Source: Bacteroidota bacterium | Lineage (GTDB): Bacteria; Bacteroidota; Bacteroidia; UBA8524 | Length of the DNA stretch: 64,000 bases | NCBI GenBank assembly: GCA_036676705.1 | Contig: JAKFCJ010000207.1 | Location: 15 to 64,014 of the forward strand | Direction of reading: 5' to 3' | Shown here: positions 5,399 to 49,515 of the stretch, in pieces | Layout of the letters: each line of letters starts with the position of its first letter | Numbering within the stretch: the stretch's first letter is position 1 | The notes under the pieces: generated by a model | Databases searched by the model: none | What the model saw: the letters and a program-made list of their open reading frames with translations, nothing else | What the model was told of the DNA's origin: nothing | Program-made: the position numbers and the translations under genes

Positions 5399-5611
5399 TT
5401 ACTGCCTTTTTTTTGGCTTTGTGGTTTTTAATGGGGATTTTCTTTTGAGAAAGATCCAGACCCCAAGAAGCAAGGTGAACAGGTAGAATACGTAAAATTT
5501 GGAACGTAAGGGTCCTTCGGCGATCAAAACCCAGGTACCCACCAAAAAGGAAAGTCCTGCAAGCACGATCCAGGCAATCCGATTAATCTTTTTCATTGAC
5601 ACTAATTTCAC
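5399..5611 (-). CDS. Small two-TM membrane protein, hypothetical
   Basis: 70 aa hydrophobic ORF wedged between the LptC-like and GldE-like genes on the same strand. Confidence 0.35.
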   Translation of the reverse strand: MKLVSMKKINRIAWIVLAGLSFLVGTWVLIAEGPLRSKFYVFYLFTLLLGVWIFLKRKSPLKTTKPKKRQ

Positions 5612-6143
5612 CTTTCACCTTAAATATCCGGTATTCCGTAAAGTTCTGATTTGACTCAAACCCTTCGCCGTAGATAATATTTTCAGGCGTTGTAATTTTA
5701 ACAAAAGCATCGGTATAAATTTTTCCGGTGTTCTGGTCCCAGATGAGTTTATCCGTATTCAGCTTTTCATTTTTGTAGTTGTAAAGCTGCACATCGTTCC
5801 TGAGTTCAACGATCTTTTTAAAGTCATAGGAGATGCCATAATTGGCTTTGAGCGAATTCTCAACCGTCCCCTGCGACCCGTAAAAATTTCCCTTCACGCC
5901 CCGGTCAAAGGTGGTAAATGTCTCTTTTCCCGGATGGCGGTCCAGTACGGGTGCTGTAATAATGGCCTTCAGCAAACCCGAATCGCTGAAACGCATTTCT
6001 ACGTTTTCGGCATGTTCGGTAAAAACCGAATCATTCAGGATCTTTTCTACCTTTTCTTTGTCTTTGCTGAGGTCGCAAGAGTTGAAAAAAAAGGCAAAAC
6101 AAAACCCGAAAAGTAAGGCGCTGTATCCTTTTTTAAGGGGCAT
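5583..6143 (-). CDS. Lipoprotein or periplasmic protein, possibly LptC/OstA-like. GldD is the alternative
   Basis: The internal start MPLKKGYSALLFGFCFAFFFNSC gives a lipobox. The predicted protein is about 190 aa and beta-rich. The gene sits upstream of the gldE-like gene rather than downstream. Confidence 0.4.
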   Translation of the reverse strand: MPLKKGYSALLFGFCFAFFFNSCDLSKDKEKVEKILNDSVFTEHAENVEMRFSDSGLLKAIITAPVLDRHPGKETFTTFDRGVKGNFYGSQGTVENSLKANYGISYDFKKIVELRNDVQLYNYKNEKLNTDKLIWDQNTGKIYTDAFVKITTPENIIYGEGFESNQNFTEYRIFKVKGEISVNEKD

Positions 6144-6175
6144 TACTTTTCGGGTTTGAACGGATATCATGCTAT

Positions 6176-7693
6176 TTAGTCGAGGTACCTGGCCGTAGTA
6201 CTGAGGTTCGGGTAACAACCTAGGGTATAGGTATTTCCTTCGTGAATGCTCCGGAAAAACCCATCTGCCTTTTTCGGGAAATAGCGGCTGTATGTGGCAA
6301 TACGCCGGTTAGCAGCTCCTGCTATACCTGAGTCCACATTTTTCGCTTTGATGTACTGATCCACAACGATCCAATAGATCGCTTTGGCATCGAATTCATC
6401 TGAGCATCCGCTTGCAGCCTGCAGGTAAGCATCCCCGATCAGAATATAGGCCTCTCCTTTATTCGGATTGATGGAAAGTGCTTTTTCAGCATAATTTTTT
6501 GCCTGCATATGGTTTCTGTTTGCCAGGGCAATTTTCGCCATGGTGATATAATCATTCACCTTGAGCACGTCATCGCTTTCGCTGTTAACCGCATTTTGAT
6601 AAACCTCCAGGGCTTTGCTGTAATTTTTTCTACCTCTGTAGGCAGAAGCCAGGTTTCTATATCCAACCGCATTCGGATTCAGTTTCAGGTAAGCTTCGGA
6701 AACCTTGAAATACAGGTCGGTATTGGTACATTTGGCATTATTGAGGAAGAGGAGGATCTTATCCATCAACTCAATATTGGTAGGATCTGCGTTAAATTTC
6801 GGAGTATAAATATTCGCCAAAGTCTCACAGTCAAGATAAGGCGCCGCCATTGTATTCAAATTCTCCTGGGCAACCGACCAGGCTTCTTTAACGGCATAAA
6901 CCACGGATCCTTCCGGTTCGGTGATCACCTTGTCAACGGTAATGTCAATACTGTCAATATTCGTGATCCTGTATTGGGGCGAATTATAATTCGGTCTTAA
7001 AGTAATGAGCATCCCCTCTTTAAGGGTTTCTGCTTTATCCGAGGTAAAGGTGTTTTCTACCAGTCCGGCAATGGTCAATTCTGTCGTGTACAATCCGAGT
7101 TTGGTTGTCGCTCCCGGGTGTTTCACATTGTAATCGACGATACGGGTAAGGTCCTCATAAGCCTTGAGGATATCATCCTTGGTCCGGAGTTTCTTTTTCT
7201 CCAGTGCGATCAGGGTCCTGAAATAAGGCACGATCAGGTTATTTTCTACAGCAACACTATCCAAACGCATGGATTCTTCGATCAGGGCAATTCCTGCTTC
7301 CGGATTTTTCTTATCCAGTTCCAACAGGGTGCTTCCCCATTTTCCTTTTACATACCCTTCTCTTCCGAAATATTCGATACGGCGTTTGTAAATAAGGACC
7401 ATGGTATCCAAAAGCTCGAGTTTACGCACCGAGTCTTTGGCCTGGCTGTATCTCCATTCGTAGATCTCAATTCCGTCTACATAAAATTGTTCTTTATGAC
7501 AGGGTGCATTGTGCCAGATATATAACCAGGGTTCGTAGGCCGATTCAAATTGTTTGAATTTGACGTCCTCATGCATCAGGGAATAATTACGAATGGTAAG
7601 GGCGCTATCTTTTCCGTTAGGATCGCAGCCGATTACCTGTGCCTGCGATTTCATGCTCAATAAAACAATACCAAAAAACAGCATTCTTTTCAT
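6176..7693 (-). CDS. Secreted TPR-repeat protein
   Basis: A signal peptide begins at the internal Met (MKRMLFFGIVLLSMKSQAQ). Multiple TPR-like helical repeats follow. Confidence 0.7.
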   Translation of the reverse strand: MKRMLFFGIVLLSMKSQAQVIGCDPNGKDSALTIRNYSLMHEDVKFKQFESAYEPWLYIWHNAPCHKEQFYVDGIEIYEWRYSQAKDSVRKLELLDTMVLIYKRRIEYFGREGYVKGKWGSTLLELDKKNPEAGIALIEESMRLDSVAVENNLIVPYFRTLIALEKKKLRTKDDILKAYEDLTRIVDYNVKHPGATTKLGLYTTELTIAGLVENTFTSDKAETLKEGMLITLRPNYNSPQYRITNIDSIDITVDKVITEPEGSVVYAVKEAWSVAQENLNTMAAPYLDCETLANIYTPKFNADPTNIELMDKILLFLNNAKCTNTDLYFKVSEAYLKLNPNAVGYRNLASAYRGRKNYSKALEVYQNAVNSESDDVLKVNDYITMAKIALANRNHMQAKNYAEKALSINPNKGEAYILIGDAYLQAASGCSDEFDAKAIYWIVVDQYIKAKNVDSGIAGAANRRIATYSRYFPKKADGFFRSIHEGNTYTLGCYPNLSTTARYLD

Positions 7694-40911: not shown

Positions 40912-41877
40912 TTAACCGGCATGTGTGATAAGCACATTGCCGGTTTTAAACCCCTTTTCAACGTAGCGGTATGCCTCAACAATGTTTTCGAGGGAGAAGC
41001 TACGGTCGATAAGGGGTTTAAATCGTTTTGTCTCCACCAATTCCTTCAAAAAAAGCACATCTTCCCGGGAGATCGTCGGGATTGGAAAAAGCAGTTTTTT
41101 TCCTCCAAAAAGGGGAGTGACCAGGGCTAAAAAAGGGTTTTGGGACATATAGCCCAATTCGGTAGACATGTAGATCCCTTTACGTTTGAGCAGGGGTTTA
41201 CATTTTGAAAATGAGCTCTTTCCGACCGCATCAAAGACGATATCAAATTCTTTTTGTAGTTGGGTAAAGTCTTCCCGGGTATAATCAATGACGATGTCGG
41301 CACCCAGCCTTTTTATTTGATCTAAATGTTGGGTTGCGCATACTGCTGTGACCTCCGCACCGAAGTATTTGGCAAGCTGCACGGCAGCAGAACCTATAGC
41401 CCCTGTCGCCCCGTTTATCAGGATTTTTTGTCCGGCCCGGAGTTTGGCTGCTCTCAGGTCGCATAAGGCATAGTGCGCTCCTTCTGTGATCGGAGCCGCT
41501 TCTTCATAAGATAGGCCCTCAGGGAGCAGTGCCATCGGACCAGTGTCATCCATAAGCAGATATTCACCATGGCCCCCGAAGTTCACATCGTTGTATCCGA
41601 AGACCCGCTCACCTGATCGAAAGTTCTTCACCTTGTTTCCAACGGCAATGACCTCCCCGGCAAACTCACAGCCCAGGATGTGCACACGGGGTCGCAGCAT
41701 ACCGCTCCAGAAGCGAACAATAAAATAGTTCGCGCTCCGGAATCCACAGTCGGTACGGTTTACAGTCGACGCATGTACCTTGATCAGAACCTCGCTTTCT
41801 TTCGGGACCGGTTGATCGACTTCCAGAATTTTAACGATCTCGGGAGGTCCGTATTGGGTATAGACGGCAGCTTTCAT
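40912..41877 (-). CDS. Medium-chain dehydrogenase/reductase (NADPH:quinone oxidoreductase-like)
   Basis: MKAAVYTQYGPPEIVK N-terminus and a GATGAIGSAAVQLAK Rossmann motif. Confidence 0.8.
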   Translation of the reverse strand: MKAAVYTQYGPPEIVKILEVDQPVPKESEVLIKVHASTVNRTDCGFRSANYFIVRFWSGMLRPRVHILGCEFAGEVIAVGNKVKNFRSGERVFGYNDVNFGGHGEYLLMDDTGPMALLPEGLSYEEAAPITEGAHYALCDLRAAKLRAGQKILINGATGAIGSAAVQLAKYFGAEVTAVCATQHLDQIKRLGADIVIDYTREDFTQLQKEFDIVFDAVGKSSFSKCKPLLKRKGIYMSTELGYMSQNPFLALVTPLFGGKKLLFPIPTISREDVLFLKELVETKRFKPLIDRSFSLENIVEAYRYVEKGFKTGNVLITHAG

Positions 41878-41981
41878 AATTGGCAATAATGGGATGTTGC
41901 TAATTAACAACAAGTCAACTACCCATTTACCCGGGCTTCGACGAGTGTTCACTTATGGATGGCCGAAAACCGGGAAGGTAC

Positions 41982-42875
41982 CTATAGCGTGTAATAACGC
42001 GGATTCGAGGACAAGGGCGAAGGAGAAGAAAGGAGCGGATAGCCGGTAATCGCTATACTCGGATTGGGATTAGGAGACAGATCAGCTACCTGAACAGTAC
42101 CAATTGCTGCTACCGGATTAGTGGCCGGTCCCGGGTCGATGGTTGCGACATAATTCGGTATTCCGGCGTTGATCGTAAATTTATTTCTTAGGCCACTATT
42201 AGCAGTATTTAAACAGGCCATCAGCCAATAAGGAAATCCGGATTGGTCAGTTAAGCTCTTAAACACCAGTAATATCGGCGTCCCCTGTGTACCTCCATTC
42301 CTTGAATTTACAGGCAAATTGATAATGGGTGGTCTTCTGGTGTTCGGGTCACCCTGCAGAGCAGTAGAACTTCCTGAGCAGGTAACGGCCACGTTCATGA
42401 TCGGACCCATAGTAGAATTATAACCGGCTGTGGTCGTAAAAAGAGGCAGCTTGTAACTCACTACTGTTGCGCCGTCATCCGGAACTGGCCATCCATTATC
42501 GTAGTCTTCATAGGAATAATTCAACTGATAGGCGTTAGCACCACAGGCCTGCCAACAAGCAGGATCAAAGGGACCGGCCGGACTTGGTGTATCCGCAATG
42601 CAGGTATAAAAACCTATGTTTTCAGGTCCTGGATTATACACCACCTGGGCATTTACAGCGAGATATTGAAGACCAGGATTGTAATTATACTGTCCGGTAT
42701 TAGTAATGGCTGTAATGCCTGTAAAAGTAAATTGAACTTCTTCCTGAAATTCATATGCTGACGGGAAGTCTATCAAACAAAAATAGTATGGGTAGGAAGA
42801 CCCTCCGACATTGTTAAATGTAATGGATGCGCCACGGATATTGAAGTTCCATGGGTTTGTAGTTGGATCACTCAT
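41982..42875 (-). CDS. Hypothetical N/G/T/P-rich protein with no recognisable signal peptide or domain
   Basis: 297 aa ORF lying between the cyclase and the MDR gene on the same strand. Confidence 0.4.
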   Translation of the reverse strand: MSDPTTNPWNFNIRGASITFNNVGGSSYPYYFCLIDFPSAYEFQEEVQFTFTGITAITNTGQYNYNPGLQYLAVNAQVVYNPGPENIGFYTCIADTPSPAGPFDPACWQACGANAYQLNYSYEDYDNGWPVPDDGATVVSYKLPLFTTTAGYNSTMGPIMNVAVTCSGSSTALQGDPNTRRPPIINLPVNSRNGGTQGTPILLVFKSLTDQSGFPYWLMACLNTANSGLRNKFTINAGIPNYVATIDPGPATNPVAAIGTVQVADLSPNPNPSIAITGYPLLSSPSPLSSNPRYYTL

Positions 42876-42948
42876 AGGATACAGGGTTAAAAGATGTTTT
42901 CTTTAACGAAACTAACTGAAAATAGGATACTTCCAAGAAAATGATCTT

Positions 42949-43491
42949 TCAAATAGCGTCAATGGAACTATCAATAAAGTACATTTCAATAAACTTATTG
43001 TGTTTAATTTCCACTTGTCCTCGGGAAGTACAAATAAAATTATTTTTTATCCTTGCGTAGGTTGCTGCACTTATATTCACTTTTCCTGCTTCGCCACTAT
43101 GTTCAATTCGGCTTGCTGTATTTACGGTTTCTCCCCAGATATCATAGGCAAACTTCTTTGCCCCTACAATTCCTGCCACTACAGGACCGGTATGTATGCC
43201 CAGGCGCATTTCTACAGGGACTTTTCCCTCTTTTATACGTTGGCACTTATGTTCCCTCATAAACTCCTGAATTTCAATCCCTGCACACACGATATCCCGG
43301 GCATGGGAGGTATTGGTAGTGGGTAGTCCCCCGGCGCACAAATAGCTATCCCCAATGGTTTTTATTTTTTCAAGTTTGTATTTGCTTATGATCGTATCGA
43401 AAGCCTTGAAACAGGTGTCCAGAAGCTCGACCAATTCCCGGGGATTGTGTTTTTCGGTAACTCCCGTGAAGTCAACAATATCTGTAAACAT
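42949..43491 (-). CDS. Class III adenylate/guanylate cyclase catalytic domain. This is the 3' half of a gene interrupted by an in-frame TAG
   Basis: FTDIVDFTGVTEK and KIKTIGDSYLCAGGLP cyclase motifs. It is in the same frame as the 43513..44946 ORF. Confidence 0.75.
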   Translation of the reverse strand: MFTDIVDFTGVTEKHNPRELVELLDTCFKAFDTIISKYKLEKIKTIGDSYLCAGGLPTTNTSHARDIVCAGIEIQEFMREHKCQRIKEGKVPVEMRLGIHTGPVVAGIVGAKKFAYDIWGETVNTASRIEHSGEAGKVNISAATYARIKNNFICTSRGQVEIKHNKFIEMYFIDSSIDAI

Positions 43492-43512
43492 GATCGTTAC
43501 TTCATCAAAAAA

Positions 43513-44946
43513 CTAGGCATCGGCGCTTCCTTTTTGTTTCAGTTCATTGGCCACTTCACGTGGCAGAATATTCAAGAGGAGTGATTCTGAAATTTGACGT
43601 TGTTTTTTCGTTCGGAGCAAACCAATAAAGATAGCTATGACCAGGGATAAGAGGAGCAGGGAGCTGAGAATGAGAATATTTCTCTGGGCCGATTTTGTCT
43701 TGTTTTGCGCATCAAGCAGCACAATTTGTTGCTCTTTTTTCTCTGTTTCGTAGCGGGTTTGCATTTCCGCAATTTGCTTCACTTTTTCAGTGTTTATTAT
43801 GGAATCACTCAGTTGGGAGTACAACTGTTGAAATGCATAGGCCTCGATAAAATTCCTTTTGTTTGCATGCGCTTCTGCAAGAAGATGGTAACTCCGTGCG
43901 AGCCGAACAATGTCATTGGACAGCCTGGCATAGGAGATGGCACTATCGAGGTGGATAATGGCACTATCGAGGTCGGCTTTGTTGCTGTCAACTTTGTAGA
44001 GTTCCAAATGAATACTCCCAATATTATAATAACCCAATGCAACATTACCCAGCATATTGAGTTTTAAACAAGCCTGAAGGGCAAGATTATAATTGTCTTT
44101 AGCAATGCGAAAATGTTTTAATAACTCGTGACACAATGCAATATTGGTCAGATTCTGTGCTATTGTATAATTATCCCCCGATTTTTTGGAGGCACTATCG
44201 ACTTTTAAAAAATAGCTCAATCCTGTTTGGTAGTCATGCAATTTTATACAGTAATGTCCTAATCCATCCCAGGCTGAGATCATATTTTCTGTATATTTAT
44301 GCCTTTCTGAAATGGCTGCGGCGAGCGAGTAATTTTGAAATGCCAGTTTTGGATCGCCATAATCAAGATAAAGATTACCCAACTGGACATAATTTTGTGC
44401 CAAAGCGAAGGAGTCATGGGTATGCTGATTCCACTTCATCGCAGCGAAAACCGCCGCAAAGGCTGAATCTTTCATTCCCAGATCGATATAAATATAACTC
44501 AGGTACAAGCATGCAACACCCGCCCCATGCGAATTTCCGTTTGCACTATATGTTTGAAGGGCATTGCTAATGAGAAGGCGTGACGTATCTACTTTTCCAT
44601 TAGCATATAAAATGGAACCAATGAATAGTTGAGCATTAGCAATGCCATTTTCATAATGGATTTCCTTTGAAAGGGTATAAGCTTCTGTGGCGAAGCGTAA
44701 GGAGGCATCCTGATCGGTTCGCTGAAATTCTTTCGATCTTTCAAGCAACGCATTTATCCGCGTCGTATCGGCAGCAAGGGCGGCTAAAGACCCCAAGACG
44801 AAGAGAAGTACCATGCTGAAAATCTTTTTCATCCGGATTGAAACCAGAACATGCAGCATAAATAAGGCTTCCTTTTGAATGGATCGGGTGCAGGCCATAA
44901 AAGACAAAAAGCGGGAACAGATCAAACTTAGGCTTTTTTCGGCCAA
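43513..44946 (-). CDS. Signal peptide, TPR repeats, a TM helix and the start of a cyclase domain (..NILPREVANELKQKGSADA). This is the 5' half of the interrupted TPR-cyclase gene
   Basis: Multiple TPR repeats and a C-terminal TM helix (ILILSSLLLLSLVIAIFIGLL). The ORF ends at TAG 43513..43515, exactly 7 codons before the cyclase ATG and in the same frame. Confidence 0.7.
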   Translation of the reverse strand: MAEKSLSLICSRFLSFMACTRSIQKEALFMLHVLVSIRMKKIFSMVLLFVLGSLAALAADTTRINALLERSKEFQRTDQDASLRFATEAYTLSKEIHYENGIANAQLFIGSILYANGKVDTSRLLISNALQTYSANGNSHGAGVACLYLSYIYIDLGMKDSAFAAVFAAMKWNQHTHDSFALAQNYVQLGNLYLDYGDPKLAFQNYSLAAAISERHKYTENMISAWDGLGHYCIKLHDYQTGLSYFLKVDSASKKSGDNYTIAQNLTNIALCHELLKHFRIAKDNYNLALQACLKLNMLGNVALGYYNIGSIHLELYKVDSNKADLDSAIIHLDSAISYARLSNDIVRLARSYHLLAEAHANKRNFIEAYAFQQLYSQLSDSIINTEKVKQIAEMQTRYETEKKEQQIVLLDAQNKTKSAQRNILILSSLLLLSLVIAIFIGLLRTKKQRQISESLLLNILPREVANELKQKGSADA

Positions 44947-45566
44947 AAGTCTTTTACGCTTTTTGTCATTGGAAGATTGCCGCCAAATTTTGGGTCGGCG
45001 ATCGGCTCAAGGGCTTGTAGCCCGAGAGGAATATGTCCAGACCACACTTCATTTTCCTGGTTTTCATCTCCGGCCGGGCCACCGCTGCGGATCTTTGCCG
45101 AAGCACGTTCAGTTTTAAAGGCTACCACCATGGTTGCTTTTAATTCACTTTCTGAACCTACAGGTACTTCTTCCCAGCGACCCGGAATGATATTATCGGT
45201 GATGATCTTTAGTGCTTCCAGCCGTTCTCCTTCCTTTTCAACCAGGCTGGCCTTTCCGAACAAAACAACCGAACGGTAATTGGCCGAAGTGTCGAACAAG
45301 GTACGGGCCAGGACCACGCCGTCGAGATGGGTTACACTGATACAAATGGTTTTTTGCTGTATGATCTGGTTCAGCATAAAATTTTTCGCCGAGCCGTGGA
45401 GGTAAAGAATATCCCCTTTTCTTCCGTATGCCGTAGGGATGATCATGGGAACATCTTCATGCATAAAGGCCACATGGCATAAAAAACCAACATCGAGGAT
45501 AGCGTAAATGCTATCCTCGTTGTTGGCAGCCCGGTTGGCACCCCGGGTAATTTTATTGAATTTCAA
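44928..45566 (-). CDS. Pyridoxamine 5'-phosphate oxidase-like FMN-binding protein
   Basis: 212 aa with split-barrel pattern AILDVGFLCHVAFMHEDVPMIIPTAYGRKGDILYLHGS. Confidence 0.55.
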   Translation of the reverse strand: MKFNKITRGANRAANNEDSIYAILDVGFLCHVAFMHEDVPMIIPTAYGRKGDILYLHGSAKNFMLNQIIQQKTICISVTHLDGVVLARTLFDTSANYRSVVLFGKASLVEKEGERLEALKIITDNIIPGRWEEVPVGSESELKATMVVAFKTERASAKIRSGGPAGDENQENEVWSGHIPLGLQALEPIADPKFGGNLPMTKSVKDFWPKKA

Positions 45567-47995: not shown

Positions 47996-48901
47996 TTATA
48001 AATTCAGTAAAGTGTAGTACACCCCGTCGATCACCTTACCCATTCTGTATATATCAAGGGTTTCCAGGGTATCTGTTTTTCTGTGATAATTTTTATTTCG
48101 ATAGAAGGAAGTATCAGTGAGCATGAGGGCACTAAAACCGAATTTCCAATAGTTCCTATGGTCGGAATAGTCGATCCCGGGAACGAGTTTGGGAGCGGTG
48201 AATTTTTTTGTTCTTACTGATTTTGTGGAGACATAACGTCTTGAAAATTTACGCGCAAATTTTCCGGATCCGAATTTTTTTACCAGGGTAATGTAATTTC
48301 CTTTTTTGCCATAAAACCATGAAAGCAGGCCTATTGGATAGGCTTGTGAACCCGGCTCGTCCTTAAAGCAGGCGATCATCTCCAGAGAGACCATTCCATA
48401 TACAGGAATCTCAGCATCAGCAAGGGACTTTGCATGGACATAGCTGCCCATATTTTCGGTCCTGAAATAAGGGGGTTCTTCAAGGGTATATGCCACAAGA
48501 TCGATACGATGGTTCAATGCCTTTCCTTTTAACAGCCTTGCCAGCTCCAACAAACCCACAACTCCACTGGCATTATCGTCAGCTCCTTCCTGATTGCCGC
48601 AAACATCGTAATGGGCACCAACGATGATCCTTTTCATGTGTTCAGTTCCGAATGAACAGATCACATTTTTGTAGACGAATCCGTTGACCGTATATTCCTG
48701 AAAAAAAACACTGTCGGTATATAGGAGGAAAACAGCTCTTATATAATCGGCTGTTTTGTTGAGCTGAGTGATGTTTTGATAGGTTCGCGGAGTATCCGTT
48801 TTTGTAATGGCAACCAGGTGAGTCCGGATAATGGCAGTGTCGGAACCTGTGCCAAAAACCAATAAAGGAGCAAGAAGCAGAATTAAAAGAAGGGCCCTCA
48901 T
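47996..48901 (-). CDS. M28 family zinc aminopeptidase, secreted
   Basis: HYDVCGNQEGADDNASGVVGLLELAR with a signal peptide. Confidence 0.8.
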   Translation of the reverse strand: MRALLLILLLAPLLVFGTGSDTAIIRTHLVAITKTDTPRTYQNITQLNKTADYIRAVFLLYTDSVFFQEYTVNGFVYKNVICSFGTEHMKRIIVGAHYDVCGNQEGADDNASGVVGLLELARLLKGKALNHRIDLVAYTLEEPPYFRTENMGSYVHAKSLADAEIPVYGMVSLEMIACFKDEPGSQAYPIGLLSWFYGKKGNYITLVKKFGSGKFARKFSRRYVSTKSVRTKKFTAPKLVPGIDYSDHRNYWKFGFSALMLTDTSFYRNKNYHRKTDTLETLDIYRMGKVIDGVYYTLLNL

Positions 48902-48910
48902 TTTCAGGGC

Positions 48911-49336
48911 CTAATTTTCTGTATACTTCTTAAAATTATCGAGGATGGCCTGCCAACCGCTGCGTTGCATGTCGATAGAATTTTCATTTTCTGCATCGAA
49001 GGTACTGATCACTTTGGTTTGATCTCCGTCTTTGATAAAGGTGGTTTCAACCGTGCGGCCATCGCTCATGGTGTAGGCGATCTTTTCATGGAGGATCACC
49101 TGGTCGTAAACGCCTTCAAAATCGAACCCGAAGCTCCCGTCTTTGGCTTCCATACGCGAAAGGAATTTACCACCCACACGCAGGTCATTTTCTGCATGCG
49201 GGGTATGCCAATCGTCGGAGGCTGTATTCCATTTGATAATATGTTCGGGCGAGGTCCAGTATTTCCATACTTTTTCTATTGGAGCATTTACGGTGTTCCG
49301 AATAGTTACCTTGGTGAATGGGTTGGCTGAATTCAT
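48911..49336 (-). CDS. SRPBCC (AHSA1/START-like) domain protein
   Basis: 141 aa with VNAPIEKVWKYWTSPEHIIKW. Confidence 0.65.
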   Translation of the reverse strand: MNSANPFTKVTIRNTVNAPIEKVWKYWTSPEHIIKWNTASDDWHTPHAENDLRVGGKFLSRMEAKDGSFGFDFEGVYDQVILHEKIAYTMSDGRTVETTFIKDGDQTKVISTFDAENENSIDMQRSGWQAILDNFKKYTEN

Positions 49337-49515
49337 GGTTTTATTTGTTCGTTATTATTTTGAAGTACAACCAAATTAAAGCATTCTAACGAGTTTTGAA
49401 AATTTCCATCCCAAGGCAAAGTGGGAAGGATGTAATTTTTTCTGCGAATTGTATAAATATTCCCTTTGCCTCTCTTCCTAGGTTTGTAAGTATTCTGAAT
49501 CAGGGAATGAGAATA

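Follow-up and report, generated by a model that had tools for sequence, protein, structure and literature searches.

The stretch of DNA analysed here (the window; 64,000 nucleotides (nt) of contig JAKFCJ010000207.1 from the Bacteroidota bacterium assembly GCA_036676705.1) carries, on the minus strand, a gene for a class III adenylate cyclase in which tetratricopeptide repeats (TPRs) are connected through a transmembrane (TM) helix to the catalytic domain, and the reading frame of this gene is interrupted by a single in-frame TAG codon. The explanation we favour, with a probability of about 0.7, is that an ordinary single-nucleotide nonsense mutation recently inactivated this TPR-coupled cyclase of an uncultured member of the Bacteroidia. 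An earlier note on this DNA, made from the sequence alone, proposed a recent nonsense mutation, a sequencing error, or a readthrough or reinitiation arrangement, and the first of the three options fits best, with glutamine (Gln) codons, CAA or CAG, present at this site in the four closest syntenic orthologs. The stop would be explained by a single C>T transition on the coding strand (G>A at position 43515 of the plus strand) that converted the conserved Gln codon CAG into TAG. Translation would then terminate after residue 439, where the transducer element gives way to the first strand (beta-1) of the catalytic domain, yielding a membrane-anchored TPR sensor with a cytoplasmic stub of ~30 residues and no output domain. 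Under this scenario, one pathway from a sensor to cyclic AMP (cAMP) would have been lost in the sequenced population, the full-length protein being presumably absent, and the lesion would be a young pseudogene, fixed or present at high frequency. Both the kind of event and the protein family are already known, and most likely, no new mechanism is involved. If the stop is real, the lineage would have lost one of usually many TPR-coupled cAMP inputs, an ordinary event.

Structure of the disrupted gene

Read in a single frame, positions 44946..42949 (minus strand) comprise 666 codons, of which just one is an internal stop, the TAG at 43515..43513 (CTA on the plus strand). Position 44946 is merely the first TTG that opens the mechanical open reading frame (ORF); the probable true start is the ATG at 44832 (MKKIFSMVLL...), where the homologs align from MKKIF. 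From this ATG to the TGA at 42951..42949, the disrupted gene (42949..44832, minus strand) consists of 626 sense codons, the one internal TAG and the terminal TGA (628 codons in total). It is delineated by the continuous frame, by Pfam matches to TPR_12 and Guanylate_cyc, and by end-to-end alignment with four intact proteins (P0001-P0004). The single in-frame TAG, the next ATG seven codons later in the same frame, and the interruption of one TPR-TM-cyclase polypeptide all stand as described in the earlier note, and so do the coordinates of the TAG, but the strand has to be corrected to minus, and the length of the protein has to be reduced from ~665 amino acids (aa) to ~626 aa.

Immediately before the TAG, the upstream ORF ends with ...NILPREVANELKQKGSADA (the longer stretch reads ...LLLNILPREVANELKQKGSADA). 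Between the TAG and the next ATG, there are seven sense codons, FFDEVTI (43492..43512, minus strand). These codons are the start of the catalytic domain (beta-1) and not a spacer, judging from the match to Guanylate_cyc, which starts at residue 442 of the fused protein, and from the conservation of FFDEVT in the orthologs. The downstream ORF (42949..43491, minus strand) opens at the ATG at 43491 with MFTDIVDFTGVTEK..., stops at the same TGA and encodes 180 aa, a class III cyclase core that lacks positions 1-11 of the profile (Pfam E=1.3e-52, profile positions 12-182 of 183).

The NCBI-derived entries are two unnamed separate proteins of 448 aa (43513..44859) and 180 aa (42949..43491), where the start at the ATG at 44859 gives the 448-aa fragment P0005. 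The significance of the stop is mainly in annotation: the two entries would be better annotated as one pseudogene, or as one gene if the reads show CAG. A search with phmmer identified no paralogs of either half of the gene within the window.

Intact syntenic orthologs

A search of 5.8 billion proteins yielded 760 homologs, and the best 120 of these are nearly all single proteins of ~580-750 aa that combine TPRs with the PF00211 domain. The clear TPR-only entry among these best 120 is P0005, the window's own fragment, with 100% identity, encoded on a 64067-nt NCBI contig. The four closest syntenic orthologs, 619-676 aa in length and 75-86% identical to the window protein, are all uninterrupted: P0001 (86%, 619 aa), P0002 (77%), P0003 (77%, 627 aa; MHB1277357.1, annotated as 'MAG: adenylate/guanylate cyclase domain-containing protein [Bacteroidia bacterium]') and P0004 (75%). 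The orthologs being single genes, the possibility that they are naturally two genes with a spacer, which would have undermined the claim of a split, is refuted. Nor have two genes come to lie side by side by chance, since the alignment with the intact syntenic orthologs runs through the stop ungapped. The common neighbourhood consists of a Pyridox_ox_2 or DUF805 gene upstream, the cyclase, a protein of 295-297 aa, a zinc-type alcohol dehydrogenase (zinc-ADH) and a beta-barrel outer membrane protein (OMP).

The sense codon at the TAG site, for which the earlier note had proposed a comparison with related strains, is CAA in the orthologous loci L002 and L003 and CAG in L004 and L005. The DNA around it reads GCx CAA/CAG TTT/TAT TTT GAY GAR in the orthologs, with flanking codons nearly identical to those of the window. 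Among 15 homologs, the alignment column at the TAG contains Q in 10 sequences, R in 3 and K in 2, within the conserved segment ...LPxEVAxELKxKGSAxA-(Q/R/K)-FFDEVT(V/I)(M/L)FTD. The pattern is that expected of a nonsense pseudogene, with uninterrupted syntenic orthologs, a sense codon one substitution away and flanking genes in common, whereas the window copy lacks a full, uninterrupted reading frame across all domains due to the TAG. The locus resembles ordinary single-nonsense bacterial pseudogenes: a single substitution accounts for the lesion, the orthologs at this locus are intact and further damage is absent. It shows no feature that distinguishes it from them.

Age of the lesion and selective constraint

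In a codon alignment of the window gene with L002-L005, the pairwise dN/dS values are between 0.05 and 0.12 throughout. A strict count of private sites gave a ratio of nonsynonymous to synonymous changes (N:S) of 29:16 for the window versus 12:23 for the sister locus L002 (Fisher p=0.013). Against this stands the inclusive polarisation, in which any outgroup match was accepted and only the part of the gene where the window and L002 are sisters was included: here, N:S is 22:25 for the window versus 16:27 for L002 (p=0.40). Two neighbouring genes show no excess of N in the private-site count, and the constraint counts in the downstream half of the gene are harder to interpret because of its mosaic history. 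Only two otherwise invariant columns are changed in the window, both conservatively: V>I in VT(V)MF and M>I in ASR(M)E. Because purifying selection dominated the window branch by either count, the stop appears to be young compared with the split between the window and its nearest relative. Such a stop could belong to a young pseudogene or a segregating allele, or be an error.

Authenticity of the stop codon

The Logan assembly of run SRR17380414 includes a 2503-nt contig (L001) that encodes the 180-aa protein. This contig corresponds to window positions 43664..41162, with no mismatch over 2489 nt and 3 mismatches confined to the last 14 nt, and contains the same TAG (...GATGCCTAGTTTTTT...). 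An artefact of the assembler, which would be one form of the sequencing error considered in the earlier note, is unlikely because the second, independent assembly carries the same TAG.

Several points weigh against a genuine inactivating mutation. The evidence for the TAG is at the level of assembled contigs. The sample behind the Logan contig is probably the same one, so that a systematic read error or a mixed population could still account for the TAG in both assemblies. Relaxed constraint in the window lineage, which might be expected after inactivation, is unproven, the two counts of substitutions being inconsistent.

Accordingly framed, the alternative is that the TAG is not the true or the dominant sequence but a consensus or sequencing error or a minority strain allele, with CAG intact in most cells. 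This possibility is on the unlikely side but deserves to be taken seriously. The DNA comes from a metagenome-assembled contig (P0005 and P0121 are both on the 64067-nt NCBI contig), and the gene shows no decay besides the stop, with all catalytic residues kept and the N:S of 22:25 on its branch. Furthermore, an abrupt shift in the relatedness to L002 lies ~90 nt before the TAG, and 43664 is where the Logan contig breaks off; either could reflect co-occurring strains or a chimeric consensus. However, two different assemblies agree on the base, and the lesion is a single substitution located beside, not within, a T run, which is atypical of homopolymer errors. In addition, one pseudogene among ~55 genes is, from general knowledge, an unremarkable rate for bacteria. 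The TAG is presumably supported by the reads as well.

Two pattern scans of metagenome contigs for the wild-type or the mutant allele in other samples gave no match, nor did a search for contigs that encode P0005. A pattern scan of genome contigs produced one exact 26-nt match to the window sequence around the TAG, at positions 5555..5580 of a contig from an Akkermansiaceae metagenome-assembled genome (MAG; L006, JBPOGF010000003.1). This match was rejected: it is not in a cyclase homolog but on the opposite strand, in the Tat-signal region (RRDLIKKLGIGALF) of an unrelated 648-aa protein. The genome to which the window belongs is accordingly absent from the species representatives.

Could the two fragments function?

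An improbable alternative to the nonsense mutation is that the split is tolerated and functional, through reinitiation at the ATG at 43491, 21 nt after the TAG, or through low-level readthrough of UAG. Only a short distance separates the stop from this ATG, and the catalytic D, K, D, D, N and R are retained in the downstream ORF; moreover, stand-alone minimal class III cyclases of ~170-210 aa, such as Ma1120 (4wp8/4wp3), are found among the solved structures. The internal Met, however, is ancestral: it is part of the VT(V)MFTD motif in all close intact orthologs, with Leu in the more distant ones, and did not evolve as a start. The free ORF lacks the transducer element and the first residues of beta-1, beginning only at position 12 of the Pfam profile, and among the homologs listed, no relative has the same split arrangement. 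No TAnnTTTG motif occurs in the 500 nt that precede the internal ATG, and sigma-70-like sites occur at the shuffled expectation. The start context of the internal ATG scores at the 66th percentile of all ATGs with a crude position weight matrix that also scores the native start poorly. A scan for an internal terminator likewise gave no more than the shuffled expectation.

The readthrough or reinitiation arrangement raised in the earlier note finds no support, given that TAG is a normal stop here, the Met is ancestral and no promoter motif precedes it. The downstream fragment does have its own ATG, as the note pointed out, but expression of a free catalytic domain from it, without the transducer element and the first beta-1 residues, is speculative, and the 180-aa remainder is presumably not translated to any useful level. 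It is even more doubtful that the TAG is a maintained feature that uncouples the sensor from the enzyme by reinitiation or low-level readthrough. Were this the case, reinitiation would produce a constitutive soluble cyclase core along with a membrane TPR decoy, whereas readthrough would provide a very low dose of the full-length enzyme.

A match to the Bacteroidetes-type -7 motif, TAAGTTTG, was detected by a regular expression scan at 44923..44930 (minus strand), 98 nt upstream of the ATG at 44832, and is a possible native promoter; the TAnnTTTG consensus is one that we take to be that of Bacteroides promoters.

TAG as a terminator in the window

The decoding of TAG as an amino acid through an alternative code or a suppressor tRNA, for example as Gln, is close to refuted. 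The orthologs do have Gln precisely at the TAG position, the same assignment as in the known cases of TAG-to-Gln recoding, but CAG to TAG is the simplest one-step nonsense change of a Gln codon, so that the coincidence is expected. Recoding is unsupported because TAG is a normal terminator in this DNA, no other gene is split and the window contains no tRNA. Specifically, of the 50 stop-to-stop ORFs in the window with 200 codons or more, 15 end in TAG under the standard bacterial code, which yields dense coverage with long ORFs; there are no other conserved genes split by an in-frame TAG and no tRNA genes within the 64 kb. The locus is a clean worked example of how a nonsense mutation can be told from recoding.

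The sole other pair of long ORFs in the same frame that is separated by a TAG (47996..49351, minus strand) consists of two unrelated genes and is not a split gene. It comprises an SRPBCC/Aha1-like protein gene terminated by the TAG and, starting three codons after this stop, a gene for a peptidase with its own signal peptide, an arrangement that also argues against recoding. The peptidase was assigned to M28 by eye and by synteny with L004.

Domain architecture and catalytic residues

In the upstream part of the protein, Pfam detects TPR_12 at residues 185-255 and TPR_8 at residues 145-176. In the fused protein, Guanylate_cyc (PF00211) matches residues 442-621 (E=3.7e-55; bit score 186.8, cut-off 21.9; profile positions 6-182 of 183). 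In the downstream ORF alone, the match is limited to profile positions 12-182, so the stop trims the N-terminal edge of the domain.

An AlphaFold model of the upstream ORF, built from 22 aligned sequences (pLDDT 87), begins with a signal-peptide helix. The signal peptide, MKKIFSMVLLFVLGSLAALA (44773..44832, minus strand), was read from the sequence and is followed by an invariant DT (D22 and T23 in an alignment of 16 sequences); together with the TM helix, it was correctly recognised in the earlier note. The TPR-like region (residues ~41-324; 43861..44712, minus strand), supported by the TPR_12 and TPR_8 matches, is predicted to be periplasmic and in the model comprises 14 helices of ~17 residues each, from H41-57 through H308-324, that is, ~7 pairs instead of the ~9 TPRs counted previously. 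The next helix in the model, 328-422, spans 95 residues and includes the TM segment ILILSSLLLLSLVIAIFIGLL (residues ~386-406; 43615..43677, minus strand), which was identified in the sequence and is followed by RTKKQRQ. The long helix ends at a Leu-Pro break, after which there is a short helix, 425-438.

A long linker helix, a turn and a short helix located directly N-terminal to the catalytic core make up the cyclase transducer element (CTE) (PMC5995499). The last part of the upstream ORF, ISESLLLNILPREVANELKQKGSADA (43516..43593, minus strand), consists of the end of the linker helix, the LP kink and the short helix 425-438, and so resembles a CTE. The assignment is based on the helix pattern in the model, on the conservation of the segment, in which L418, L419, N421, I422, L423, P424, E426, A428, E430, L431, K432, G435 and A439 are invariant in the alignment, and on the alignment to Cya (5o5k) from residue 44 of the latter. 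The TAG falls precisely at the boundary between this element and strand beta-1, and apart from it the adenylate cyclase is perfect.

The residues D451, K491, D495, D564, N571 and R575 are all present in the window copy and invariant across the 16 aligned sequences, within the motifs FTD(451), K(491)TIGD(495), YD(564)IWG and VN(571)TASR(575). From the spacing in Rv1625c (K four positions before D, D seven positions before N, R four positions after N), we take these to be the two metal-binding Asp, the adenine-specifying Lys/Asp pair and the transition-state Asn/Arg pair. By the profile match and the six canonical catalytic residues, the protein restored by conceptual repair of the stop is assigned to the class III nucleotidyl cyclases of the adenylate type.

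Relationship to known cyclases

The closest solved structures are those of the catalytic domains of mammalian membrane adenylate cyclases (AC5, AC8 and AC9; E-values down to 9e-54) and of mycobacterial Cya/Rv1625c (2e-43 to 4e-36). The similarity to the Rv1625c/Cya structures (5o5k, 4p2f, 1yk9) extends over the CTE and the catalytic segment, residues 1-205, with E=2e-43 to 5o5k, the crystallised Cya of Mycobacterium intracellulare. The window protein shares with the class IIIa membrane cyclases the metal-binding Asp pair, the Lys/Asp substrate pair, the Asn/Arg pair and the long helix, kink and short helix that precede the core, suggesting that it is a class IIIa-type cyclase. It differs from them in that a periplasmic TPR array and one TM helix are present in place of the 6-TM bundle, and in that the window ORF is broken between the CTE and the core.

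Within Bacteroidota, the window protein belongs with a family annotated as 'adenylate/guanylate cyclase domain-containing protein' or 'tetratricopeptide repeat protein' (e.g., P0003), with which it shares the architecture, the neighbourhood and 77% identity; the members are intact, unlike the window copy with its TAG. Ma1120 (4wp3/4wp8) is close in size to the 180-aa downstream ORF but is distant in sequence (E ~1e-6) and has a complete beta-1: its alignment begins at query residue 30, with another 7 residues before that point, but the ORF opens only at residue 34. A literature search returned nothing on the TPR-cyclase architecture in Bacteroidota or on run SRR17380414.

Mosaic relatedness of the locus

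The relationship between the window and its relatives changes along the locus. From 44900 to ~43615, the window groups clearly with L002 as its sister (87-90% nucleotide identity), and among the sites informative for the window, L002 and L003, the pattern that unites the window with L002 prevails ~4:1 over each alternative. From ~43600 to 42450, the window, L002 and L003 are roughly equidistant, with L002 closest to L003, and between 42400 and 42200, the signal of a sister relationship between the window and L002 is back. The apparent breakpoints are near 43615-43590 and at ~42450. The upstream switch falls in the highly conserved stalk, TM and transducer region; the TAG follows ~90 nt further downstream, and the end of the Logan contig (43664) is ~50 nt away. 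This pattern suggests that related lineages underwent homologous recombination in the cyclase gene and the adjacent gene; a strain-chimeric consensus is another possibility. The mosaic pattern is not the source of the stop, the TAG being well inside the downstream block in both assemblies.

Neighbouring genes and related sensors

The 295-297-aa protein, which has no Pfam match, is encoded directly downstream of the cyclase on the same strand, with a spacer of 55-85 nt, in 5 of the 5 loci (window 41982..42875, minus strand; L002 3044..3937; L003 4958..5851; L004 4959..5846; L005 2326..3213). It is possibly co-transcribed with the cyclase, in which case the premature stop upstream might affect it.

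The gene content around the cyclase varies. Locus L002 lacks the Pyridox_ox_2 and zinc-ADH genes that are present in the window (44928..45566 and 40912..41952, respectively). In L003, a group II intron-type reverse transcriptase (RVT_1 and GIIM domains; 5962..7374) lies between the gene for the 297-aa protein and the OMP gene.

The TPR-stalk-TM part of the cyclase (61% of the query) is 50% identical to P0043, a 661-aa protein from JGI annotated as 'signal transduction histidine kinase', in which the output consists of HisKA_3/HATPase domains in place of the cyclase. The same periplasmic sensor module is combined with different outputs.

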